From: Promethearchaeota archaeon
GTDB lineage: Archaea > Asgardarchaeota > Lokiarchaeia > Sigyniarchaeales > SOKP01
Assembly (NCBI GenBank): GCA_016926735.1
Contig: JAFGOA010000219.1
Location: 1 to 25,613 of the forward strand
Direction: 5' to 3'
DNA: 25,613 nt
In this document: positions 420 to 24,199 of the stretch, piece by piece
Numbering within the stretch: position 1 is the first letter of the stretch
Layout: every line of letters begins with the position of its first letter
Translations under genes and position numbers: made by a program
The notes under the pieces: model-generated
What the model was told of the DNA's origin: nothing
What the model saw: only the letters and a program-made list of their open reading frames with translations
Databases searched by the model: none

Positions 420-446
420 AGATCTTTTGTCTAATTAATCTATAAG
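351..446. repeat. Direct repeat copy B: EF-1alpha 3' end and 3' UTR
   Basis: Partner of 37..132; overlaps the last 7 nt of the EF-1alpha ORF (440..446). Confidence 0.9.
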
Positions 447-1741
447 CCTGGTTCGATGTCCTTAACAATGCCAACGGCTACTGTGCGTCCCATATCTCTT
501 ACTGCGAATCTTCCCATCTCTGGGATATCTTCATACTTCTCTAAGCAGAGCTTTTTGATTGGTTGAAGTTTTACGATTCCAGCTTCATTCTTTTTCATGA
601 ATTTAGGGTTATCTTCGATTACAGCTCCGGTTTTTTGATCGAGTTTTTTGGATAGTTCAATGAATTTTGAAGCGACTTGAGCAGTGTGAGCGTGTACGAC
701 AGGAGTATATCCTTGAGCGACAGCTGTTGGGTGCCAGATTACGATGATTTGACCGGTCCAATTTCCTTTTGGACTGATGACTGTTGGTGGGTTGTTTGGA
801 TGTCCGAGGCAATCTCCTCTTGCGACTTTATCGATGGTGAGACCTCTGATGCTGAACCCGATGTTATCTCCTGGTTCTGCTTGCGGGATTTCTTCATGGT
901 GCATTTCCATGCTTCTTATTTCGCCAGTGAATCCACCTGGTTGGATAATGATTTGGTCTCCTTTTTTCATGATACCAGTTTCGACTCTTCCGACAGGGAC
1001 GACGCCTGTACCTTTAATTTTATAAGCATCTTGAATAGGTACTCTTAATGGTTTACCTGTTGGTTTTTCAGGCATTTCAAATTCATCAAGAGCTTCAAGT
1101 AAGGTTGGTCCATCGTACCATGGGATTTTATCGCACTTTTTGGCGAGATTTTCAGATTTTAGACCGCTTACAGGGACAAAATGGATTTTTTTGACATTAA
1201 ATCCGATTTGTTTTAATAGAGCTGAAGATGCGGCGACAACTTCGTCATATCTATCTTTATTATATTCCCATACATCCATTTTGTTTACGGCGACGACGAG
1301 TTGTTTTACGCCGAGGGTTTGGGCGAGATATGCGTGTTCACGGGTTTGGCCATTTGCTGCGATGCCTACTTCCATTTCACCTTTTTTTCCTGAGATGACG
1401 AGTACTGCGGCATCAGCTTGGCTTGCGCCAGTGATCATATTTTTGACGAAGTCTTGATGTCCTGGTGCATCGATAACAGTGAATGTTTTATTATCAGTGT
1501 CGAATTTTCTGAAAGCGAGATCGATGGTGATACCTCTTTGTCTTTCTTCTTTTAGTTTATCAAATACATAAGCGGCTGACCATGAATCTCTATCGTATTC
1601 TTTAGCGATTTTTTCGAGTTCACGAGCTTCTCTTTCAGTGACTGCGCCAGTTTGGATGAGTAAAGCACCCATCATAGTTGATTTACCTTGATCAATGTGT
1701 CCAATAATAACTAAATTAAGATGTGGTTTTTCTTTGACCAT
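440..1741 (-). CDS. tuf: Translation elongation factor 1-alpha (aEF-1A)
   Basis: KPHLNLVIIGHIDQGKST P-loop, ERQRGITID, DAPGHQDFVKNMITGASQAD, NKMD, C-terminal GRFAVRDMGRTVAVG; 433 aa; visibly more GC-rich than its flanks, as expected for a highly expressed gene. Confidence 0.98.
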   Translation of the reverse strand: MVKEKPHLNLVIIGHIDQGKSTMMGALLIQTGAVTEREARELEKIAKEYDRDSWSAAYVFDKLKEERQRGITIDLAFRKFDTDNKTFTVIDAPGHQDFVKNMITGASQADAAVLVISGKKGEMEVGIAANGQTREHAYLAQTLGVKQLVVAVNKMDVWEYNKDRYDEVVAASSALLKQIGFNVKKIHFVPVSGLKSENLAKKCDKIPWYDGPTLLEALDEFEMPEKPTGKPLRVPIQDAYKIKGTGVVPVGRVETGIMKKGDQIIIQPGGFTGEIRSMEMHHEEIPQAEPGDNIGFSIRGLTIDKVARGDCLGHPNNPPTVISPKGNWTGQIIVIWHPTAVAQGYTPVVHAHTAQVASKFIELSKKLDQKTGAVIEDNPKFMKKNEAGIVKLQPIKKLCLEKYEDIPEMGRFAVRDMGRTVAVGIVKDIEPGL

Positions 1742-2063
1742 TTTTCATCAATTATATTTTTTTTTATTTATATATTGTTTGATTAATTTTAATCCAATAG
1801 ATTGTTTTTTTTGATATATTAGATTGTATCAATCAATTGTGTGATATTTTATAAAAATGATATGGAATTTAAAATCTTTTTGGTATTTGGGAAATAATTC
1901 CCTTTATTTTATGGGTGATTAATTGATTTTTCTTTGATGATCATGACAATTGAGTAAAAAAAAGACGATAAACGTATTGATTAGTTATTTTTCAACTAAT
2001 TAGGGCTATAAATTAGTTACTAGGTTAAAAAAGAAAAAAAGGGAAAAAAAAGATAGAGATAAT

Positions 2064-3687
2064 TTAAGGTGGTACTTGTCCACCATCATTTATGGTCCAA
2101 GTATAATTGCTTATTATATTTGCTTTAGCGGTTGCTGCAGCGCCTGGACTATATTGTGAATTTCCAGCATTAAAATGCACATTAGGCTGTAATGTTAATT
2201 TTTCCCATTCAATTAACAAACTATCATAATTTACGGTTGATAAGGTTACGCCAGAGAACATACTAGTCATATCACCTACATTGGAGACATTCCAACTACT
2301 TATATTTTGATCGAAAGAGTAAGCTGTTTGGAACATATAACTCATATCAGTTACTTTGGAGACATTCCAACTGTTAATATTTTGATTGAAGGATGTTGCA
2401 TTTTCAAACATACCTACCATTGTATTAACATTAGAAACGTTCCAACTACTAATATCTTGATTGAAGGAAGTTGCTCCCCGAAACATATAACTCATATCAG
2501 TTACACTAGAAACATTCCAACTACTAATATCTTGATTGAAGGAAGAAGCACCTTGAAACATTCTTTGCATATTTGTAATTTTGGATACATTCCAATTACC
2601 AATATCTTGATCAAAAGAAGAAGCATCATTAAAGATATAAAACATATTAGCAACATTAGAGACATTCCAATCTCCAATATTCTGGTTAAAAGACGATGCA
2701 CCTTCAAACATATTTCTCATATCGTTTACATTTGAAATATTCCAATCACCAATATTTTGATTAAATAAAGTAGTATCCCTAAACATGGAATCCATATTCT
2801 CTACTTTAGAGACATCCCAATCACCAATATTTTGATTAAATGATACGGCATTCTGAAACATATAACTCATATCAGTCACCTTGGAGACATTCCATTTATT
2901 AAGATCTTGATTAAAAGATGTTGCTCCCCTAAACATATAATTCATATTGGTTACACTAGAGACATCCCAATCACCAATATTCTGGTTAAAAGACGATGCA
3001 CCTGAGAACATAAATCGCATATTTGTTACACTGGAGACATCCCAATTAGAAATATCTTTATTAAATGAACTTGAATCATAAAACATATTTCTCATATTTG
3101 TTACCTGAGATACGTTCCAATTATTCATATTCCCAGTATCCCCAAGATTACTGCAATTTCTAAAAGCCTGATAAAGCGTGGTTGTTCCTTTTAAATCTAA
3201 AGAATCAGAAGCTGTGAGATTTAGATAATAACATCCCCAGAAATACCCTCCTAAATCCCCTAATTTGAGAGTACCCCAATTTTGAATTTCAATTAATTTT
3301 AATTTATCTCCTTGATTATTGAATCTCCAACCATTTAATTTGCCATCTATTTTAATGGTATAAATTCCTTCTGAAGCATATGTATGGTTTATTTCTGGTT
3401 GATTCCAAATTGTGATGGTATCGTTAGTTTGATCACCCCAATTAACTGTAAAATTATAAGTACCCCCTGAATATAATGGTAGGCTAACTTGATTACTATT
3501 AGTTGAATCAGAACTTGTTTTTTTTGTATCCCATACTGATATATAAGTTAAGTTTGGCTCTATTGGGTTATTCTTATTTGAAGGAATAAAAATAATAACC
3601 AATATTATAAATGAGCTAATAACAAAAAGAATTGAAAGAGAAATTGCTATAAATTTTTTATTTTTGATAATTTTACTTTACACCCAT
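2064..3687 (-). CDS. DUF285/BspA-family leucine-rich-repeat surface protein with N-terminal membrane anchor and PKD-like domain; start codon apparently out of frame by +1
   Basis: About 12 repeats of 25 aa with consensus (D/N)IxxW(N/D)VSxVT(D/N)MxxMFxxAxSFNQ; PKD-like YNFTVNWGD...[11 protein letters not shown]; C-terminal WTINDGG. The frame stays open upstream of the TTG at 3602 to 3677 and encodes [31 protein letters not shown] (basic N-region plus hydrophobic anchor). The nearest ATG (3687) is one base out of frame. Confidence 0.85.
2250..3131 (-). repeat. Intragenic 75-bp (25-aa) tandem repeat array, 11 full units plus 1 partial
   Basis: W(N/D)(V/I)S...MF...SF(N/D)Q periodicity in the translation; an exact 30-bp DNA match at 2674..2703 and 2974..3003. 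Confidence 0.92.
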
Positions 3688-3842
3688 AATAGAATTTTAT
3701 ACAGAAAAGTTAATGTATTGTAAATATCTTTTTTTTAATTTATATATTATTATACTACGTTATTTTCAACAAATTTATAAAATCTAAGCGAAATATTACA
3801 AAAAATCAATTTTCAAATCTAAATTCTGGTATAATTTTAATA

Positions 3843-5057
3843 TTAATTATTGATAAATTCGTCTAATAAATCTAAATAATTAACTATTTGTCTTGTAATA
3901 AGGAAATTCTTTTTTACTTTATCTCTAGCATTTTTTCCGATTTTAACTGCTAAATCTGGATGTTCTATTAATTCAATTATTTTATTTTCAAATCCTTTCA
4001 GATCCATAGGATCAAACAAAAATCCATCTTTACCATTTGTAATTTGTATTGGAACACCTCCTACTTTTGATGCTACTACTGGTTTAGATTTCCATAAAGC
4101 TTCGGTTATTGTTAGCCCAAATCCCTCTCTAAGAGATTTTTGAATAATTACTGAAGACTGTGATTGAATAGCATTAACTAAAATGTCATTTTCAACGGTA
4201 GTAAGAATTACATCCTTATTTTCAAGCATATTTCCTGCGGCTTCTTTAACTTGTTCATAGATTAAAACTCCTTCTGGATCATCAGATGCTAAACTTCCAC
4301 AGAGAACCAAGCGACAATCGATTTTTTTTTTAATATTTTTAAATATCTTCAAAACGTTAATAGGATCTTTCCATTTATCAAACCTTGATACTTGAGTTAT
4401 TATGGGTTTATCATTAGGAATTTCAAATTTTTCAAGAGTATAATCAATTAACTCAGAATCTATTTCTTTATTCTTAGGATCTAAAGGATCAATAGCAGGG
4501 CATATAATATGCTGTGGAATTGGAATATCCTCTTTTTTATATTGTTCATTAGAAACAATCATATGATCATATCTAACAATAAAGTGTTTTAAAAACTCCC
4601 ATAATTCTTGATGTGGGGAGGTTAAATCAACATGACATCTCCAGATCCATGGTTGTTGTTTTTTAAAGAATTTAATAATAGGTAGAGGTTGTGGATCATG
4701 AATAATAACACAATCATGATCCAAATGAGTTATTTGTGAGAAATCTTCATTTGTCTCTAAATAAAGTTGTTGCTTAATATCTGAAAAATTGAAATCTTCA
4801 CCTTGTAATCCATTATGGAATTTTTTAGTAATTGTATAAAAATCAGGATTTCCATGTAATACTCTCCAACCTGTAGTCACATTTATATCATTCATTAATG
4901 GAATAAGCGATAAAAGCATTTCTGCTACACCACCACCTTGAAAAGTAGAATTAATATGAACAATATGTTTTCCATATAACTTTCTAGCTTTTTTATGAAT
5001 CTCAGCAATTATTTGAGGTCCTACAATATCATAATAATCATCTATAGATTTAACCAT
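3843..5057 (-). CDS. treT: Trehalose glycosyltransferring synthase (GT4 family)
   Basis: HINSTFQGGGVAEML, FYTITKKFHNGLQG, IHDPQP, WIWRCHVD, PAIDPL, QVSRFDKWKDP, QKSLREGFGLTITEALWK are the characteristic TreT motifs; 404 aa. Confidence 0.9.
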   Translation of the reverse strand: MVKSIDDYYDIVGPQIIAEIHKKARKLYGKHIVHINSTFQGGGVAEMLLSLIPLMNDINVTTGWRVLHGNPDFYTITKKFHNGLQGEDFNFSDIKQQLYLETNEDFSQITHLDHDCVIIHDPQPLPIIKFFKKQQPWIWRCHVDLTSPHQELWEFLKHFIVRYDHMIVSNEQYKKEDIPIPQHIICPAIDPLDPKNKEIDSELIDYTLEKFEIPNDKPIITQVSRFDKWKDPINVLKIFKNIKKKIDCRLVLCGSLASDDPEGVLIYEQVKEAAGNMLENKDVILTTVENDILVNAIQSQSSVIIQKSLREGFGLTITEALWKSKPVVASKVGGVPIQITNGKDGFLFDPMDLKGFENKIIELIEHPDLAVKIGKNARDKVKKNFLITRQIVNYLDLLDEFINN

Positions 5058-5269
5058 GTTTACTTCATATAATTCATTAGAATAAAAATATTTAAAATTT
5101 AAGATAATAAATTTAAATAGTGTAATTCAAATTTTCTTAATTTTATATTAATTTTTTAATAGACTTAATATAGTTAATTTAGAGGAGGATTTATCTTATT
5201 GGCCTTATCAGCTTAATCTTGAGAATTTTTTAAGTTTAAATAAAAATTATTAATAAAAAAAAGATTTGG

Positions 5270-5476
5270 TCAGAAGAATGACCTTAATTGTTCTAAATAG
5301 ATTTCTTGATGGCCTAGATTATTAAAATAAATTTCAGCATCATTTTCAGGCTCATATTCAAATAAACCACATTTTTCACAAAAAAAATTATTCACATCTG
5401 AAAGATTTAACATATCTCCATCCCAAATTTCTATTTTTGTAGGATAAAGAGGTTCATTGCAAATTGAACATTTCAT
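5270..5476 (-). CDS. Small Zn-finger (CxxC...CxxC) protein, 68 aa
   Basis: From the ATG at 5476: MKCSICNEPLYP...FFCEKCGLFEYEPE with an acidic tail. The 38 upstream codons in the ORF track look like non-coding AT-rich sequence. Confidence 0.6.
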   Translation of the reverse strand: MKCSICNEPLYPTKIEIWDGDMLNLSDVNNFFCEKCGLFEYEPENDAEIYFNNLGHQEIYLEQLRSFF

Positions 5477-5818
5477 TTTTCGATCTTTTTTACTTAAAAT
5501 GATTAATTTTTTACTAGTTTTTTCAGAACTGATAATATTTTGGCATATTTCCAATTTCATCATCAATATAATAGGTAATTTTATTATCATAATGTAGATG
5601 GAAATTTATTTAATAAAAAAGAGAGAGAAAGAATACTGATTTAAAAAAATTTTTTTAAATAATCTTAATTACATATAAAGACTACATTAGAACTCATTAT
5701 TAATCTCTACGCATTGATATAGTTATTTAATTTCTTTAATAATTCATTTTTGAGCATAGAAACCAATCATTTTGATAAAATAAGTATTAAAAAAAGGATA
5801 TTAATTTAAAGATATATC

Positions 5819-8743
5819 CTAAGATAACATTTGGATTTGAGATTTTATGAACATTAGCATTTGTCCAATCCGTATTGCTTGTGGTGTAGTTGCCATATTA
5901 AGTTTTTTAAAGATATCATAAGCTTCTTCGTAATTTTTTAAGATTTCTTGTAACAACTCTTTTGTAGGTTCTATTTGTCTTGATTGAATTTTATTAAATT
6001 GTGATCCTCCTATATTAGCTAATATCATCGCTTTTCCTATTAAATTTCCCATCTTTTCATAATTATCCATTGCTGTATGGAAATATTGTAATGCTTCTTC
6101 TTGTTTTCCTTGTTTCATTAAAATATTCCCTATTCCAGCTGAGCTATCTGCTATACCTGTTAAATTATTCAATCCTTTATCAATTTCAAGTGCTTTTTCG
6201 TAAAATTCTAAAGCTTTTATATGATTTTGTTGATAAAAATATAAACTACCAATGCATAGTAAATTTCTTGATTTACCTGCTAAATTTCCGATTTTTTCAT
6301 TAATTTCAAGAGCATTTTGTTGACAATTAATAGCTTCTTGTAGATTTTGAGATTTCATATATAAATCTCCCATATTCGTTAAGCAAAGCGCTTTAGCTGC
6401 TATATTCCCCACTTGATCATGCAATTTTAAGGCCAAATTATATTGATTCAATGCTTCAGGATAGTTACCTATTAAAGAATAGACATTAGCAATACCCACA
6501 TGATTTTCTGCAACTAGTGTGAGATTATCTAATTTTTCATTGATCTCAAGGGCTTGTTGATAATTTTGTAAAGCTTTTTGATGATCACCAAAATTTAAAT
6601 ATGCATTAGCTATATTAGTCAAATTTTCTGATTTTCCGGGAACATCACCAAGTTCTTCATTAATTTCCATAGATTTCTGATAATAATTAATTGCTTCTTG
6701 ATAATTACCCATAAAGTAATGAGAATTGCCTATGTTGAGCAAGGTTGTGGATTTATTTTTTAAATCATTAATATTTTCGCTTATTTCTAAAGATTTTTGA
6801 AAATATTCTAAAGCTTTAGAATAATTTCCTTGCAAATTATTTAAACTTCCAAAATTATTAAATACACGAGCTTTCATAGCTAATTCTCCTATTTGATCAC
6901 TAATTTCTAAAATTTCTTGATATATATTCTCAGTTTCTTTATACTCTCCTTTTCTAGAATGAAGGACTCCTATACTAATTAGAGTATTCATTTTTCTTTT
7001 TAGATCTCCCATTTGATTATTGATTTCAATAGCTTTTTTGTAATAATTCATAGCATCCTCATATTTTCCTTGAAGCATATACATAATCCCTATATTATTT
7101 AAATTTATAGATTTATCGCTTAAATCTCCCAATAAATTATCAATTTCTAAGGCTTCTTTAAAATTTTTCATTGCTTCTTCGTACTTACCTTGTTCTCTAT
7201 ATGCACCTGCTTTATTAGTAAGAATTATTGCTTTTATTGCTAAATTTCCAATCTTATCATTAATTTCTAAAGCATTTTGAAAATCTATAAGAGCACTTGG
7301 ATATTCGCCTTGGTTTAATTTTATAGATCCTAAATTAGTTAATGTTTTTACTAATACTTGCTTATTATCCGATTCTGTTAATAGCTCTTTTGCTTTTTCA
7401 AAAGAATTAACAGCATCATTATATTTACTTTGATCACCAAATACAGCACCAATATTATTTAAACATTCTATTTTTTGTTTTTTATCACCAATACTTTCAC
7501 AAATATGCAATCCTTCATTAAAGTTTTTTAATGCATCCTCATAATTTGATTTTAATCTAAAAATTCGGCCTTTTTTGATGAGAAAAGTGACTTTTGAATT
7601 TAAATCATTCTTTTCAATAGCAATTTCTAATCCTTTAGATGCGACTCTCATGGCATCATCAGGTTTTGATAATCGGTCAAAAAATTCGAAAGCAAATGCA
7701 TATTTCTTTAGATTATTAGTAAAAGTTATTACATTTTTCACATAATTTCTGTATTCTTGTGGATTAAATTGAATATTATTTAAATTTGGTCGTTGAATTT
7801 TAGGAAACATAGTATTCCAAAGTAGTGTTGATGAAAAATAAGAGGTATTAATATTAATCTTATAGATTTCTAAACTCATACCTTTGCTTTTGGCAATTTT
7901 AGCTATCTCGTTTAATAATATATCTTCTTTTTTTACAAAATCAGTCTCTATAGAAGACTCAAGTTTTAAAATTTCAATATCTTCTGTCCCTGTATGATTA
8001 ATCCATATAATTGTGGAAATTCCATGTAATTTTTTTAATGTTGGTCCTATATCAAAGTCATCACTACCAGAATAACCCATAATAGTTAGAGTAGAATCCT
8101 TTAAAACATTGAATAATGGTTCTTTCTTATAACTCTCAACGGTAAAAGTTTCTTCTTCACCTCGTTCTTTTCCCAATGATTCTAATGTTGTTATAAGAGT
8201 TTCCTTTGTTTCTATTCCTGTAATTATATTTTTATTAGTACCATGTATTTTTATGAGGGGAAATTTGCCTTTATCTTTTAATGATTCTGGATTTTTGTAT
8301 TTAAGAAAATCTTCTTTTGTAATTATTGGTATTATATTCGATTTTTCTTGTACTATTTTCATTAGAGCAAATTCAATAAGGTAATCAAAATTAGTAGTAA
8401 TCACCCAACTTCCTGATTTAATAGCATTTGCTATGGTATAATGTATAAGATTTGGCTCCGTGAAAGTGTCAAAATACTCCATAATTTTCAATTCAGGATC
8501 AAAATTGTGTTGTATTGTTTCTATTATTAATTCATATCGGAGACCTTTAAGATTGCGAATTCTGTCTATTTCTCCCTCTGGAGCCCCTAAACTTATTAAT
8601 ACATCAATAAATCCCATAGCGGAAGGAACCAAAGATGGTTTATCCATGGAAATACCTGCTCCGACTAAAAATACTAATTTCTTTTCTTTAGAATATAATT
8701 CATCCAGCTTTTCAATCGGAGACTCAAATAAAGTATATGACAT
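5819..8743 (-). CDS. SIR2-like (SIR2_2-type) domain fused to a long TPR array
   Basis: N-terminal LVFLVGAGIS, VITTNFD, LIKIHG, IMGYSGSDDFDI motifs of SIR2-like proteins; residues from about 346 to 955 form about 15 TPR units of 40 aa; no Walker A motif seen. Confidence 0.88.
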   Translation of the reverse strand: MSYTLFESPIEKLDELYSKEKKLVFLVGAGISMDKPSLVPSAMGFIDVLISLGAPEGEIDRIRNLKGLRYELIIETIQHNFDPELKIMEYFDTFTEPNLIHYTIANAIKSGSWVITTNFDYLIEFALMKIVQEKSNIIPIITKEDFLKYKNPESLKDKGKFPLIKIHGTNKNIITGIETKETLITTLESLGKERGEEETFTVESYKKEPLFNVLKDSTLTIMGYSGSDDFDIGPTLKKLHGISTIIWINHTGTEDIEILKLESSIETDFVKKEDILLNEIAKIAKSKGMSLEIYKININTSYFSSTLLWNTMFPKIQRPNLNNIQFNPQEYRNYVKNVITFTNNLKKYAFAFEFFDRLSKPDDAMRVASKGLEIAIEKNDLNSKVTFLIKKGRIFRLKSNYEDALKNFNEGLHICESIGDKKQKIECLNNIGAVFGDQSKYNDAVNSFEKAKELLTESDNKQVLVKTLTNLGSIKLNQGEYPSALIDFQNALEINDKIGNLAIKAIILTNKAGAYREQGKYEEAMKNFKEALEIDNLLGDLSDKSINLNNIGIMYMLQGKYEDAMNYYKKAIEINNQMGDLKRKMNTLISIGVLHSRKGEYKETENIYQEILEISDQIGELAMKARVFNNFGSLNNLQGNYSKALEYFQKSLEISENINDLKNKSTTLLNIGNSHYFMGNYQEAINYYQKSMEINEELGDVPGKSENLTNIANAYLNFGDHQKALQNYQQALEINEKLDNLTLVAENHVGIANVYSLIGNYPEALNQYNLALKLHDQVGNIAAKALCLTNMGDLYMKSQNLQEAINCQQNALEINEKIGNLAGKSRNLLCIGSLYFYQQNHIKALEFYEKALEIDKGLNNLTGIADSSAGIGNILMKQGKQEEALQYFHTAMDNYEKMGNLIGKAMILANIGGSQFNKIQSRQIEPTKELLQEILKNYEEAYDIFKKLNMATTPQAIRIGQMLMFIKSQIQMLS
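5880..7708 (-). repeat. 40-aa TPR repeats (about 15 units)
   Basis: Recurring LxN(I/L)Gxx(Y/F)xxxGxYxxAxxxxxxALEIxxxxG(D/N)L pattern at 120-bp spacing. Confidence 0.9.
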
Positions 8744-8909
8744 GATTTATTTTTAGTAATCGTCTTATTTATTTATTTTCAAATCGTGTCCTTTATTTAT
8801 TAAAAAAAACTTAATTAAAGGTAAGAATAAAAAACTATGGAACGTTAAATAAAATAGAATTAATTATAATATCTTTTATATTTCATTATTAAATTCAAGA
8901 GAAGAGAAA

Positions 8910-9734
8910 ATGCCAAAATCGAGAACACCATTTCCAAAAGAAGGAGAATTTATTGTTGCTAAAGTAACTGATATCGAAAATCAATATGTTTATGTGGAGC
9001 TATTGGATTATAAGGGGTTACCTTCTGAGCATTCTGCTAGAGGTATGGTTCATATATCAGAGATTTCAAGTAGATGGATTAAAAATATTCGCACACATCT
9101 TCGGGAGGGGCAGAGAATTGTACTAAGAGTAATAAGAGTAGATCCTGAAAAGGGACATGTCGATCTTTCTTACAGAAGAACAAATGATGCTCAAAGAAAG
9201 AATAAAATGAAGGAGTGGAAATATGCTGTGAAATTTGAAAATCTACTTCAATTTTTTGTTAATGAATATGAAAATTTATCCTTAGATGATGCTTATGAAA
9301 AAATTGGATTTCCAATATTAAAATTATTTGACGATAATTATCAAGATGTCGTTGAGGAGCTTAAAGAGAATGGTGAAGATCTCTTAAATAATATTGAAGG
9401 GATTACGGAAGAACAAAAAGCTTCTTTTCTGAAAATTGTTGATGAAAACGTTGAAATTTCTACAATAAATATATTAGGTAAAATAACATTAAAATTTAAT
9501 CAAAATAATGGAATTGATTTATTAAAAGAGACTTTATTAAAAGCTCAAAGTAGTATTAAAAACCCAAGACGCACTAGAAACTTAGAATTAACATATATTG
9601 CAGCTCCAAAATATCGATTAGAAATAATTGCGAAAGATTATTTAGACGCTGAAAATATTTTATCTGATGCCTTGGAAGTGTTCGAAGAAAATGCAAAGAA
9701 ATATAATGCGCTATATTCATTTGAAAGAGATTAA
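8910..9734 (+). CDS. eif2a: Translation initiation factor 2 subunit alpha (aIF2alpha)
   Basis: S1 domain FPKEGEFIVAKV...GMVHISEISSRWIKNIR...RVDPEKGHVDLSYRR and C-terminal YIAAPKYRL; followed by nop10 as usual in archaea. Confidence 0.95.
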   Translation: MPKSRTPFPKEGEFIVAKVTDIENQYVYVELLDYKGLPSEHSARGMVHISEISSRWIKNIRTHLREGQRIVLRVIRVDPEKGHVDLSYRRTNDAQRKNKMKEWKYAVKFENLLQFFVNEYENLSLDDAYEKIGFPILKLFDDNYQDVVEELKENGEDLLNNIEGITEEQKASFLKIVDENVEISTINILGKITLKFNQNNGIDLLKETLLKAQSSIKNPRRTRNLELTYIAAPKYRLEIIAKDYLDAENILSDALEVFEENAKKYNALYSFERD

Positions 9735-13595: not shown

Positions 13596-14306
13596 TTAGT
13601 AAAACATATTATATAATCTTTTATATATATTAGCTAATTGAGAGATTTTATAGCCATCGTTATATTGAAGATAGTAGGCAATATAAGTTGAAAGTCCTTG
13701 AGGATCATTTAACCATTGTAAAAAGCTTTCTACTTCCATTTTAAGAATAGGATTTATTTGTACACTTTGCTGTAAAAGTACTGTTGTTGCACTGTTCATG
13801 GATTGAGCAATGGTATTCATATTTGATGATGTTTCTATCTTATGATCTTTATGTTTGCTTTTCTTCTTATCCTTTGGTTTTGGTGGAGCTTTAGTTTTTT
13901 TTGATACTTTAACCCCTATTTGTAATCCTGTTTCCATCATAGCCGCTGCTCTCGCAACTGCAGGATATGCTTCATGAAACCAGCCTTTAGCTTTAGGATT
14001 TATATGAGCTACCATGTATTTATCACCACTTGGAGTAGTAGCTCCAACTAAATGTCCTTTTTTCTTTCTGTTTGTTCCTACAAAACGTTCAGGTTCCATT
14101 TGTAGAATGGAATATCTAATACCTCCTAATGTGACAGATTGTGCAGTTCCACTAGCCCAATTTGCGAGAAGTGTTTTTATTTCACCATTTATACTCCATT
14201 TTCCAATAGAAAATAGGTTTTTACCAGATCTATTGATAATAGCAATATCGGTAGCATCTGGGTAATTTTTTTGTAAAAATTTTGTTGCGTCTTTATAATT
14301 AACCAA
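13596..14306 (-). CDS. Asgard-type profilin domain with Lys-rich linker and C-terminal helical extension
   Basis: Residues 1 to about 125 carry IAIINRSG, KWSI, SVTLGGIRYSILQMEPERFVGTNRKKKGHLVG, VAHINPKA, matching the Asgard profilin pattern as I recall it (AII..DG..W.I; GxKY...ER..GTN..GKGH; Y.NP.A). TTG start preceded by GGAGGTG. Confidence 0.8.
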   Translation of the reverse strand: MVNYKDATKFLQKNYPDATDIAIINRSGKNLFSIGKWSINGEIKTLLANWASGTAQSVTLGGIRYSILQMEPERFVGTNRKKKGHLVGATTPSGDKYMVAHINPKAKGWFHEAYPAVARAAAMMETGLQIGVKVSKKTKAPPKPKDKKKSKHKDHKIETSSNMNTIAQSMNSATTVLLQQSVQINPILKMEVESFLQWLNDPQGLSTYIAYYLQYNDGYKISQLANIYKRLYNMFY

Positions 14307-14348: not shown

Positions 14349-15743
14349 TTAAGGATTTAACCTTATCATATTTTTATTAGCATTATTTATCCAAGACTCT
14401 ACTTTCTCAAGTAACTCATATCTGTCTTTTTGACTTAAGCTTAAATTTGGGTTTTTCTTTTTATAAATATTTGCTAATTTACTCATTTCCCACATATAAT
14501 CTAAATGTAATACTAATTTTCGTAGATTATCTCTCGCAATTTCAATAGCTGATCCTATTGTTGGCATATCATAATTATCATTAATAATTGATCGAAGATA
14601 AAAAAGTATGTCTTTAATACTATTTGTTGGCATTTGAGGTAAAGATCTACTTTTAACAAATTCACTTCTCATTGTTTTTAAAACAAAGTCATCATTTTTT
14701 GGGGTATTATACCCCTCAATATTATAGATATTAGAGCGTGAATTATCTATTACTTGTTGATTATTATTATTATTATTTGTATCTGTGGAAATAATTTCTG
14801 GTTTATCTCTCCTTCTAATTCCCGTTGGCCAAGGTGATACTTCATTTAATCTACTCTCAGCAGAAATGAATAATGAATTCTTTAGATTTATATTTTTATC
14901 ACTCTTTTTCTTATCTATTATTAATTTTCCTGGGCCCTTTAAGTATTGAGCTGTCTTTTCCAATATAGAAGATAAATACATAGGATCATAATCAATAATA
15001 GAATAGACATTTTTCAATTGAAAAATCATCTTATCAATATCAGACATTTTTGAACTTGAAAATAGTTCTGAAAGAAAATCATCAACCCCAATAATGATTT
15101 CATTGATACCTGCTGTTGGGTTTATATATTTGGCATAATTTCCTTTTGATGATATTAAAATCTTATTATAATAATCCCAATGAGTACTCAGAATCATATG
15201 TCCATTATTTTTGATATCATATGTGTCAGGTTTTTTAATTGTGCTCATCATTTCCAAGATACTCTCTTTATATGGAATGAATAAATTTCTCATTAAAGCT
15301 CCTTTAATAAAAGTCTGTTTATTATTAGATTTAAATGATAAGTCTATAGGCACTTTTACAACCCTCTCACTATATATAACATCTTCATCATCTTGTAATG
15401 TAATTCTTTTTGAACTAGCGAGATGATCATATACAAAATCAGATAATATTAACCCGCTGAGTTGTCTACTATCGATTATATATCTACCTGATTTTAATTC
15501 AAATTTAGTAAAATAATATCCTAGACCAAATAAACAATGAATTATTCCCTTGTCAGTTACAATACTAGATTCTGTTCCTCCAAAAAAGATAACAATATCA
15601 GTTAAGATTTTTGTAATATCTTGATTTGCATACGTGCCTAATGTAGGAAACCCTAAAACTTTACTCCAACTGGGTATAACAAATAACATATTATTATTTA
15701 TTAGTGGAGCTTTTCTATTTTTATTAATTAAGCTAGAAGTCAT
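14349..15743 (-). CDS. Hypothetical protein, 464 aa: globular N-terminal region, low-complexity Asn-rich linker, helical C-terminal domain
   Basis: Long ORF in AT-rich DNA; ATG at 15743 with GAGGA at 15751..15755; (AAT)6 poly-Asn at 14760..14777; no family recognised. Confidence 0.8.
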   Translation of the reverse strand: MTSSLINKNRKAPLINNNMLFVIPSWSKVLGFPTLGTYANQDITKILTDIVIFFGGTESSIVTDKGIIHCLFGLGYYFTKFELKSGRYIIDSRQLSGLILSDFVYDHLASSKRITLQDDEDVIYSERVVKVPIDLSFKSNNKQTFIKGALMRNLFIPYKESILEMMSTIKKPDTYDIKNNGHMILSTHWDYYNKILISSKGNYAKYINPTAGINEIIIGVDDFLSELFSSSKMSDIDKMIFQLKNVYSIIDYDPMYLSSILEKTAQYLKGPGKLIIDKKKSDKNINLKNSLFISAESRLNEVSPWPTGIRRRDKPEIISTDTNNNNNNQQVIDNSRSNIYNIEGYNTPKNDDFVLKTMRSEFVKSRSLPQMPTNSIKDILFYLRSIINDNYDMPTIGSAIEIARDNLRKLVLHLDYMWEMSKLANIYKKKNPNLSLSQKDRYELLEKVESWINNANKNMIRLNP

Positions 15744-15862
15744 TTTGAAATCCTCGTAAAATAATTCTACGTAAGACTGAAAAAGTATTTCTTTTTTAAA
15801 AAAGTTTAAATATGTTAGTGTGAGATGTATGTTCTTCCTCATATATAAATTTTTTTTTTTCC

Positions 15863-23152: not shown

Positions 23153-24199
23153 TTATTGGTCTATTTTAACATTTTTTTCACTTAGATGAAATAATTTTCT
23201 TTTAGAATCTTCACTTAAAGGATTAAAGCGGATAGAAATTCTTTCCAAAGAGTTCAACTCCAGTATAGAATTAGGAAGAGTAGATATAGAATTATGATCT
23301 AAATCTAAAATTCTCAATGAATCTAATAATTCAATTGATTCAGATATTCTGGTTAATTTACACCCGTTTATTATCAATACTTCAAGATTATTTAAATTAT
23401 AAATAGACTCTGGAATATCTTCTAATACTGAATTAATTATTTTGAGTTTATTTATATGCTTATTTTTAACAATAAATCCAGAAGAATCTTTGTTTTCTAA
23501 ATAATCAATAGGATGAACAATTACTTTCTCTAACTCCTTTAGAGCCTTGATTTCATATTCTGCTATTTTGACACCTTTAAAGTCTATTAACGATTCTTCT
23601 AAATCCATTCCACATAAAAGACAGTAAGTTCTGAAAGGATCTATAATCTTTCCACAATATAGACAAGTATTTTTTTTTCCTATTAATGGATCTAATTTCA
23701 AACCTTTCTTTTTTCCGCAAGTAGAACAAAATATTTGGTCCTTATCTAGCTTTGCTCCACAATTAGCACAATTTGTTATTATATTGTTAGTACTATTATT
23801 TTGGTTTTCATAATAAGACGTCATATAATTCTTTAATCTAAATAACCAATTTTCTAGATCTGTTAATTTATTAATATTTTTAGGGTTATTTTGTTTGTCT
23901 AATTGTAATGTATCCTTAATTTTTGTTTTTAACCGATCATATATTGATAATTCTTCATGTGACTTGTCAGTTACTTGATTATATAAGGATTTTTTTTTTA
24001 TATTAATCTTTTCTTTTAAATCAGAAAGAAGCATTTTAGGTGTTGTAAATCTTATAATATTTTTTCGATCTGGAGGTAGGTTTGGATCAGGAAGGAAATC
24101 ATCAACAGTAAGATTATGTTTATCATGATTAAGTATATTTTGTTTTGTTTTTTTTATTTTTCCTCTTATTTTATCTATAAAATTAGCAATATCGTCCAT
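23153..24199 (-). CDS. Double zinc-ribbon plus leucine-rich-repeat protein
   Basis: CANC...CSTC and CLYC...CLLC pairs; about 4 LRRs (LEDIPESIYNLNNLEVLII, LTRISESIELLDSLRILDLDHNSISTLPNSILELNSLERISIRFNPL). Confidence 0.85.
   Translation of the reverse strand: MDDIANFIDKIRGKIKKTKQNILNHDKHNLTVDDFLPDPNLPPDRKNIIRFTTPKMLLSDLKEKINIKKKSLYNQVTDKSHEELSIYDRLKTKIKDTLQLDKQNNPKNINKLTDLENWLFRLKNYMTSYYENQNNSTNNIITNCANCGAKLDKDQIFCSTCGKKKGLKLDPLIGKKNTCLYCGKIIDPFRTYCLLCGMDLEESLIDFKGVKIAEYEIKALKELEKVIVHPIDYLENKDSSGFIVKNKHINKLKIINSVLEDIPESIYNLNNLEVLIINGCKLTRISESIELLDSLRILDLDHNSISTLPNSILELNSLERISIRFNPLSEDSKRKLFHLSEKNVKIDQ

Follow-up and report, generated by a model that had tools for sequence, protein, structure and literature searches.

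The stretch of 25,613 nt at positions 1–25,613 of contig JAFGOA010000219.1 of a Promethearchaeota archaeon (assembly GCA_016926735.1), called here the window, encodes a 974-aa protein (P0001; positions 5819–8743, reverse strand, stop codon included) in which a SIR2 domain of the NADase type is joined directly to a long array of tetratricopeptide repeats (TPRs), with no nucleoside triphosphatase (NTPase). The open reading frame (ORF) is complete and remains open over all 974 aa. By analogy with the bacterial protein DSR2, there is about an even chance that this SIR2–TPR protein works as a one-polypeptide, ligand-gated NADase of the SIR2_2 or ‘SIRim’ class, i.e. as an enzyme cleaving nicotinamide adenine dinucleotide (NAD+). 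In such a mechanism the N-terminal SIR2 domain (residues 5–317) would bind NAD+ via the GAGIS Rossmann loop, a pocket made of N118, D120 and H167 would cleave it, and the 15-unit TPR solenoid would bind a specific protein ligand, perhaps viral or stress-related. Ligand binding, probably accompanied by a change of oligomeric state, would switch on the restrained NADase, and the resulting depletion of NAD+ would lead to cell arrest or death, as in the response of DSR2 to a phage tail tube protein. Since every paralogue has a TPR array of its own, each presumably recognizes a separate ligand. This DSR2-like reading is favoured because architecture, fold class, conserved pocket, accessory status and variable copy number all fit it, as do the occurrence of pseudogenes, paralogue-specific sensors and alternative sensor fusions.

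The SIR2 domain covers residues 5–317 (7793–8731; reverse strand, as for all parts of the gene), as delimited by Pfam, an AlphaFold2 (AF2) model and structural alignment. Residues 114–231 match Pfam family SIR2_2 (PF13289) with 34.4 bits for a cutoff of 24.5, a threshold also passed by all seven close paralogues of the genome. The AF2 model of residues 1–400, built from 42 homologues, has a predicted local distance difference test score (pLDDT) of 89.2 and a predicted template modelling score (pTM) of 0.88. Foldseek places DSR2, the SIR2 protein of SPARSA, KomC/HAM-SIR2, FAM118B, SIR2-HerA and Avs5 at the top ranks. With a second structural aligner, VIA-align, matches extend over model residues ∼5–317 and span the whole SIR2 domain of each target. 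The best is SPARSA SIR2 (8y80_E; Z 19.5, 269 aligned residues, root mean square deviation 3.4), followed by ThsA (Z 15.8–17.0, with 17.0 for 7uxt), KomC (Z 16.8), DSR2 residues 22–296 (Z 16.3, 247 aligned residues), Avs5/AVAST5 (Z 13.9–14.7), SIR2-HerA (Z 14.6) and FAM118B (Z 13.4), while the deacetylase SIRT3 (Z 12.9) scores below all these matches, which are characterized NADase-type domains. Sequence profiles identified a single solved protein, SPARSA Sir2 (E = 0.003), and a look-alike search of the ESM Atlas returned only generic SIR2_2 clusters. No cysteine occurs in residues 1–330, so that the protein lacks the zinc-ribbon module found in deacylase sirtuins, and Pfam gives no match to the classical sirtuin family PF02146. 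As modelled, the module belongs to the NADase (‘SIRim’) fold class, with an extended Rossmann sheet devoid of a zinc-ribbon module, and cleavage of NAD+ is predicted from this kinship.

The four SIR2-like motifs that a sequence-only reading of the window had described as intact-looking are indeed in place, and their catalytic-type residues are conserved across homologues. GAGIS (residues 28–32; 8648–8662) forms the Rossmann dinucleotide-binding loop, TTNFD (residues 116–120; 8384–8398) contributes the putative pocket residues N118, F119 and D120, KIHG (residues 165–168; 8240–8251) contains the putative catalytic histidine H167, and GYSGSD (residues 223–228; 8060–8077) is a conserved strand-loop motif of the SIR2_2 family that aligns with ‘GYSGRDE’ of SPARSA Sir2. 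Among the 42 N-terminal homologues, G28, N98, N118, D120 and K165 are invariant, and A29, G30, S32, H101, T116, T117, H167, G168 and the GYSGxDD stretch are conserved in at least 90%. In a second alignment (A2) of 31 full-length relatives, N118, F119, D120 and H167 are all invariant. In DSR2, the pocket residues N133-Y134-D135 and H171 correspond to N112-Y113-D114 and H152 of ThsA, and alanine substitution of Y134, D135 or H171 lowers NADase activity (PMC11263360). The pocket of the archaeal protein reads N118-F119-D120 plus H167, where H167 is the probable equivalent of DSR2 H171 and ThsA H152, as judged from motif order and fold and not from a residue-level superposition.

The linker of ∼100 aa (∼232–330) that the sequence-only reading had placed after the SIR2 motifs proved to be for the most part the C-terminal third of the SIR2 fold, with strands at residues 242–250, 257–261 and 292–298 and helices at 272–286 and 300–312. 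The true connector is only ∼30 aa long (residues 318–348; 7700–7792, from AF2 secondary structure) and consists of a loop and helices 328–338 and 344–357 that run into the solenoid. The TPR solenoid, the presumed ligand-binding sensor, occupies residues 349–948 (5900–7699). Pfam detects TPR_12 in nine stretches (E = 4.5e-86), in addition to TPR_1 and TPR_2. The repeat period is exactly 40 residues, with a mean BLOSUM62 self-similarity of +1.45 at lag 40 and negative values at all other lags from 30 to 49. Set in rows of 40, the array resolves into 15 in-register units with zero indels, which bears out the ∼15 repeats counted earlier. At the DNA level the period is 120 nt and the identity between repeats is 60–74%; therefore the repeats are old. 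The full-length model (pLDDT 88.2, pTM 0.68) has 32 uninterrupted helices over residues 344–973, with 30 regular helices in the solenoid; helices 928–947 and 954–973 lie at the C-terminus, where residues 949–974 (5822–5899) are assigned to the capping helices.

The absence of an NTPase, also part of the sequence-only reading, is found at every level of the analysis. The protein has no Walker A or Walker B motif, no match to an NTPase family in Pfam or PADLOC, and no second alpha/beta module in its full-length model, in which the SIR2 fold is the sole alpha/beta region and the remainder is helical. A cryptic NTPase in the linker is ruled out, since residues 232–317 align inside the SIR2 domains of DSR2, ThsA, KomC and SPARSA. 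Across the family, Walker-A-like strings occur at chance rate (9 of 254 proteins, versus 8.65 in shuffled sequences), and no NTPase was found in the long or N-terminally extended variants that were scanned.

The closest known parallel is DSR2 of Bacillus subtilis (PDB 8wyb, 8zc9 and others), whose N-terminal SIR2 domain is followed by a HEAT-like solenoid; when this solenoid binds the phage tail tube protein, NAD+ hydrolysis is triggered, with no NTPase involved (PMC11850899, PMC11263360). Both proteins are single polypeptides of ∼1000 aa that begin with a SIR2 domain of the NADase type and continue directly into an all-helical alpha-solenoid; they share the N-x-D...H pocket (PMC11263360) and have neither an NTPase nor an obligatory partner gene; the archaeal gene likewise combines SIR2 and solenoid with signals of monocistronic expression and no conserved partner. 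However, DSR2 is built from helix-turn-helix, helix-bundle, six-HEAT-repeat and C-terminal domains of its own, whereas the solenoid of the archaeal protein is a regular array of 15 × 40-residue TPRs. Outside SIR2 the two show no detectable sequence relationship, and no DSR model is among the PADLOC matches of the archaeal protein at E ≤ 0.1. Moreover, DSR2 is bacterial, while the protein described here is archaeal (Asgard) and part of a multi-paralogue repertoire.

Other SIR2 systems were compared as well. The SIR2-APAZ protein of SPARSA (PDB 8y80, 8jkz, 8in8) shares the TTNFD and GYSG motifs, and the best PADLOC matches of the archaeal protein are Aga_SIR2 models, over residues 94–173 only; yet the latter protein lacks an APAZ domain and has no Argonaute neighbour (aIF2alpha and a 106-aa ORF are found instead), and in place of nucleic acid-guided activation its C-terminus offers a protein-binding TPR array. 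Avs5 (AVAST type 5) and the eukaryotic SIRim-NACHT-TPR proteins have the same order of N-terminal SIR2 effector and C-terminal repeat (TPR) sensor, but the central STAND NTPase that defines the SIR2-STAND-TPR proteins is missing here. Eukaryotic sirims combine NACHT or NB-ARC with TPR or ankyrin repeats, and Asgard genomes took part in the published SIRim phylogeny (bioRxiv 10.1101/2024.09.18.613514). Thoeris ThsA has an NADase-type SIR2 fold with an equivalent catalytic pocket, but reads a nucleotide signal made by ThsB through a SLOG (or Macro) domain, whereas the present protein has a TPR array, no SLOG domain and no TIR partner. With SARM1 the likeness is one of concept, an NADase restrained by an N- or C-terminal helical-repeat domain; SARM1 is a TIR enzyme with ARM repeats that bind nicotinamide mononucleotide or NAD+, is not homologous to the archaeal protein and serves as an analogy only.

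Of the one-component sensor–effector that the sequence-only reading had suggested, the direct SIR2–TPR architecture is supported, but a repeat-gated SIR2 NADase without an NTPase is a principle already known from DSR2, and the archaeal protein is a variant of it and not a new class. Two features appear to be new: the presumed sensor is a canonical TPR array of high regularity, and the genes form an Asgard-restricted family of many paralogues whose syntenic core member lies beside nadB, Macro and LMWPc genes. No description of an Asgard SIR2–TPR family was found in the literature searched, which is no proof that the family is undescribed; the main text of a survey of Asgard defence systems does not mention SIR2, DSR, TPR or Thoeris (PMC11291487).

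The gene lies among core genes of archaeal information processing, namely those of aEF-1alpha (440–1741, reverse strand), aIF2alpha (8910–9734, forward strand), Nop10, GINS51, PriS and PriL. Other neighbours encode a DUF285 protein, a TreT-like glycosyltransferase and the 106-aa orphan (5270–5590, reverse strand), which has no family assignment. Comparison of this conserved block in the present genome (G000) and three genomes of the same genus shows that the gene is optional. In G117, with an aIF2alpha 98% identical, the SIR2–TPR gene is at the same place with 93–96% identity. In G019 (aIF2alpha 78%), the order is GINS51, aIF2alpha, small ORF and aEF-1alpha, with only ∼210 bp at the SIR2–TPR slot, and in G030 (aIF2alpha 77%) the slot holds genes for a 175-aa protein, a 645-aa Peptidase_C13-like protein and a 753-aa winged-helix protein, all unrelated. 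The best full-length matches in G019 and G030 are only 33–34% identical and are therefore other paralogues. With the slot empty in one genome and filled by other genes in the other, the SIR2–TPR gene counts as accessory, one of several possible occupants of a variable position within an otherwise conserved block. It is nevertheless maintained where present: between G000 and G117 (dS, the synonymous divergence, ∼0.12–0.15), omega is 0.26 for the SIR2 module and 0.14 for the TPRs, compared with a reference value of 0.06 for aIF2alpha.

No obvious partner gene had been noticed earlier, and comparative data agree. The 106-aa ORF is rejected as a partner, because it keeps its position in the congeners without a SIR2–TPR gene (86% and 51% identity) and matches no family. 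When 626 ORFs from 80 loci were clustered, essentially no neighbour family recurred beside the length classes other than the ∼803-aa subfamily considered below. Signals flanking the gene are in keeping with independent expression. An A/T-rich TATA-like box read from the sequence (8765–8779, reverse strand), 22–36 nt upstream of the ATG, may act as promoter; it sits in the 166-bp divergent intergenic region that the gene shares with aIF2alpha. On the other side, a stem-loop GGATAT-N12-ATATCC (5789–5819, reverse strand) begins in the stop codon and is followed by T7, a terminator-like arrangement suggesting that the gene is monocistronic. A scan for bacterial sigma-70 sites gave 28 against 29.9 expected, but this consensus is bacterial and uninformative for an archaeon.

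In the 3.88-Mb genome there are seven close paralogues of 600–974 aa, the window's gene among them, with 39–49% identity in the SIR2 module, and a more distant SIR2_2–TPR protein of 858 aa, giving eight SIR2–TPR genes in total. Three further SIR2_2 proteins (719, 466 and 351 aa) have no TPRs and carry other or no recognizable C-terminal domains. The distant SIR2_2 genes of G000 are at C139:27070–29646 (reverse), C222:45033–47192 (reverse), C137:2313–3713 (reverse) and C66:243–1298 (forward). A word-seeded search found 654 relatives, none above 51% identity. The best 120 named relatives are all from Asgard archaea, labelled Promethearchaeota/Lokiarchaeota or Hermod-, Odin-, Hod-, Hel- and Sigynarchaeota; members from cultured hosts belong to Promethearchaeum syntrophicum and Lokiarchaeum ossiferum. 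In public annotations these relatives are merely a ‘tetratricopeptide repeat protein’ or a ‘SIR2 family protein’. An exhaustive HMMER search of 1.84 billion cluster representatives gave 1599 matches at E ≤ 1e-3 and 322 at E ≤ 1e-30, of 263–3154 aa, and the best 80 genomic loci among 185,579 species genomes are without exception (80 of 80) from Asgard archaea.

The distribution is patchy as well as narrow, being almost confined to Lokiarchaeia-type Asgard archaea. Among 251 sampled genomes of the phylum, with presence scored at E ≤ 1e-20, the protein family occurs in 49 of the 54 that belong to the window's own taxonomic family, in four of five of a sister family, in the single genome of another family of the class, but in only three of the ∼190 others. 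Copy numbers per genome vary from 1 to at least 7, and several copies are interrupted by in-frame stops. No copy at all is present in some complete genomes from the window's own taxonomic family, one of them 100% complete and made up of 10 contigs; therefore the family is not essential. This also answers the question of whether the gene is a conserved single-copy housekeeping gene, which would have spoken against a sensor role: it is not, being absent from two of three congeners and accompanied by paralogues.

The seven paralogues differ more in their sensors than in their effectors, with a mean identity of 42% for SIR2 versus 25% for the TPRs, and with different numbers of repeats. Between G000 and G117, the low omega of the TPRs (0.14) indicates purifying selection. 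In a FastTree phylogeny of 248 SIR2 domains, each paralogue stands beside a protein of similar length from elsewhere (941 aa with 943/945, 601 with 601, 600 with 600, 760 with 752, and 728 with 749), and the copy in the window stands most apart, nearest to a class of 1051–1060 aa. A recent burst of paralogues is thereby ruled out, the nearest relative of each being a similar-length protein of another genome. Within length classes the TPRs too are well conserved: identities are 62% (SIR2) and 55% (TPR) in the 803-aa class (n = 68), and 58% and 44% in the ∼1049-aa class (n = 19). Conservation of the TPRs within length classes together with the pairing in the tree argues for ancient subfamilies and not for a recent expansion.

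The evidence for immunity remains circumstantial, and several observations weigh against the DSR2-like reading. PADLOC assigns the protein to no system and gives only weak matches, to the pAgo-associated Aga_SIR2 (E = 2.5e-5), PDC-S65 and generic TPR models. The neighbours are housekeeping genes with no defence island around the SIR2–TPR gene, and no family member was found on viral contigs, at the sensitivity of two peptide patterns. The immune role put forward by the sequence-only reading accordingly has the standing of a proposal. Selection on the TPRs, as measured between the two closest genomes, is purifying and not diversifying, and the arrays keep their length and sequence within subfamilies. 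To judge from the sequences, the subfamilies of the repertoire are old, have stable sensors and are patchily distributed, instead of having arisen by rapid recent expansion. Finally, the ∼803-aa class resides in a fixed microsynteny in >20 Lokiarchaeia species, in a setting more suggestive of a part in the cell's own NAD/ADP-ribose physiology than of mobile immunity.

In this microsynteny (loci L042–L071, e.g. L053:6001–7179 and flanks, and also L028, L029 and L030), one strand carries a Macro gene (∼182 aa) and one to four tandem LMWPc genes, divergent from the SIR2–TPR gene; on the strand of the latter, beginning directly downstream of it, follow genes for a 523-aa protein, a 267-aa protein and a Peptidase_S8. 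The 523-aa neighbour is L-aspartate oxidase NadB (NF006567, 694.6 bits versus a cutoff of 629; TIGR00551, 556.9 versus 452.75), and the 267-aa neighbour is ADH synthase. With the first gene of NAD biosynthesis (nadB) and an ADP-ribose-processing domain (Macro) beside an enzyme of NAD-consuming type, the arrangement may reflect a functional cluster around NAD/ADP-ribose. LMWPc genes are rare, with only two copies in the 3.88-Mb genome, of which one is 1.5 kb from the 941-aa paralogue. At this locus (L017), the LMWPc gene is at C192:31963–32349 and the paralogue at C192:27635–30460, with an RNase H-like gene between them, an arrangement that echoes the LMWPc adjacency of the 803-aa subfamily.

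These data bear most directly on a second explanation, already raised as a signalling alternative in the sequence-only reading and still a serious rival, in which the protein is an endogenous regulator of NAD+ or ADP-ribose. It would be a regulated NADase, or an ADP-ribosyltransferase acting on proteins or small molecules, with the TPRs as scaffold for cellular partners and the paralogues serving in stress, dormancy or signalling. Such a role is tentative, a minority possibility that the 803-aa subfamily makes attractive by its fixed length, by a TPR identity near that of SIR2 and by its conserved company of LMWPc, Macro and NadB, with an LMWPc gene near another paralogue too. Reversible ADP-ribosylation by SIR2–Macro pairs is established (reviewed in PMC9503650), and the purifying selection on the TPRs and the lack of a defence-island context point in the same direction. 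However, the window's copy lies outside the 803-aa synteny, is accessory and is absent from congeners, the family is dispensable, and the nearest structures are all abortive-infection NADases. Moreover, the entire 803-aa block is syntenic, including ADH synthase and the peptidase; therefore the nadB adjacency may be inherited gene order.

A third explanation, that of a non-catalytic NAD(H)-binding or scaffolding TPR protein in which the SIR2 fold is a module for ligand sensing or oligomerization, is improbable. It would account for the Phe found where DSR2 and ThsA have the Tyr of their N-Y-D pocket, for the low model confidence at loop 187–200 and in the GYSGSD region of the full-length model, and for the richness of Asgard genomes in TPR scaffolds. 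Yet N118, D120 and H167 are invariant or nearly so family-wide, which is unexpected in a dead enzyme, and the SIR2 module is constrained (omega 0.26). The Tyr to Phe change itself is common to the solved Sir2 of SPARSA, a component of a prokaryotic Argonaute complex, whose TTNFD motif aligns with that of the archaeal protein in the hidden Markov model alignment. Least probable is a classical sirtuin lysine deacylase recruited to its substrates by the TPR array, since, despite the SIR2 superfamily fold and the alignment with SIRT3, the only family match is PF13289, both hallmarks of these enzymes (PF02146 and the Cys4 zinc-binding small domain) are missing, and all better structural matches are NADases.

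If the DSR2-like reading is extended from the window's gene to the whole family, one may speculate that Lokiarchaeia-type Asgard archaea possess a lineage-specific repertoire of NTPase-less SIR2–TPR receptors, of >300 sequence clusters and with 1 to at least 7 copies per genome, each with a fixed TPR array specific to the paralogue, functioning as germline-encoded pattern-recognition NADases that grew from a syntenic core member wired to NAD metabolism. This wider proposal is a minority possibility. It would amount to an archaeal family of receptors for innate immunity or cell fate among the nearest relatives of eukaryotes. Such a repertoire could resemble in its organization that of nucleotide-binding leucine-rich-repeat receptors (NLRs), minus the nucleotide switch, and could be related to the eukaryotic SIRim proteins with TPR-like domains.

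The SIR2 module has also entered other combinations. Rare fusions link it to other modules of sensor or adaptor type: leucine-rich repeats (LRRs), a Ras/Roc-like or Arf-like GTPase, an E2 domain or DUF4062. Members of other genomes with altered architectures (P0229, P0223, P0222, P0115, P0173/P0164 and P0122) include E2 (UQ_con)-SIR2-TPR, LRR-SIR2, Ras/Roc-like GTPase-SIR2, SIR2-TPR-Arf-like GTPase and DUF4062-TPR-SIR2-TPR arrangements, and one variant is a 3154-aa giant with three SIR2-like stretches. In P0228 an N-terminal TBP domain precedes the module, possibly through a fusion made by gene calling.

As regards mobility, the region around the gene (5000–9200) shows no convincing repeats, direct or inverted, of the kind that bound mobile elements, and the window contains no tRNA and no TIR gene. 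tRNA genes are typical integration sites. One is found beside a paralogue: a tRNA of 102 nt (Rfam, 47.9 bits; L018:7243–7344, forward strand), probably intron-containing, ends 20 bp from the stop codon of the 601-aa paralogue (the C30 copy; L018:7365–9170, reverse strand). ARAGORN gave no tRNA near any paralogue and missed this one.

Other features of the window deserve mention. The interval between aIF2alpha and aEF-1alpha (1741–8910; L034 in G030 and L035 in G019) is a hotspot of variation in gene content within the genus, holding in G000 the SIR2–TPR gene, the small ORF, the TreT-like glycosyltransferase and the DUF285 protein, in G030 the Peptidase_C13-like protein, the large winged-helix protein and a 516-aa unknown protein, and in G019 the small ORF alone. 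This 106-aa ORF, with a weak C2H2 zinc-finger-like match (E = 0.002), may encode a small conserved Asgard protein. Two ORFs beside PriL (13596–14306 and 14349–15842, both reverse strand) are ∼65% identical in G030 and have no Pfam family; one of them, of 236 aa, has a very weak profilin-like match (E = 0.0087) and thus a possible link to the Asgard cytoskeleton. Elsewhere in the window, a 348-aa protein (23153–24199, reverse strand) combines a double zinc-ribbon with LRRs; it is of repeat-sensor type and unrelated to the SIR2–TPR finding.

Even if the members turn out to be common TPR scaffolds whose sirtuin-like domain is regulatory, the analysis would provide a useful annotation for a family labelled just ‘tetratricopeptide repeat protein’. 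If they are ligand-gated NADases, the DSR2 principle would be extended from one bacterial system to a large and diversified archaeal family. Its hosts belong to the nearest kin of eukaryotes, in which SARM1, FAM118B/SIRanc and TIR proteins likewise act as NAD-depleting immune effectors. The family is a ready-made series of fixed TPR arrays whose ligands can be sought, and its two cultured hosts make the question open to experiment. Comparison of the syntenic core (nadB, Macro and LMWPc) with the scattered accessory members could show how a metabolic NAD regulator became an immune receptor, or the reverse.

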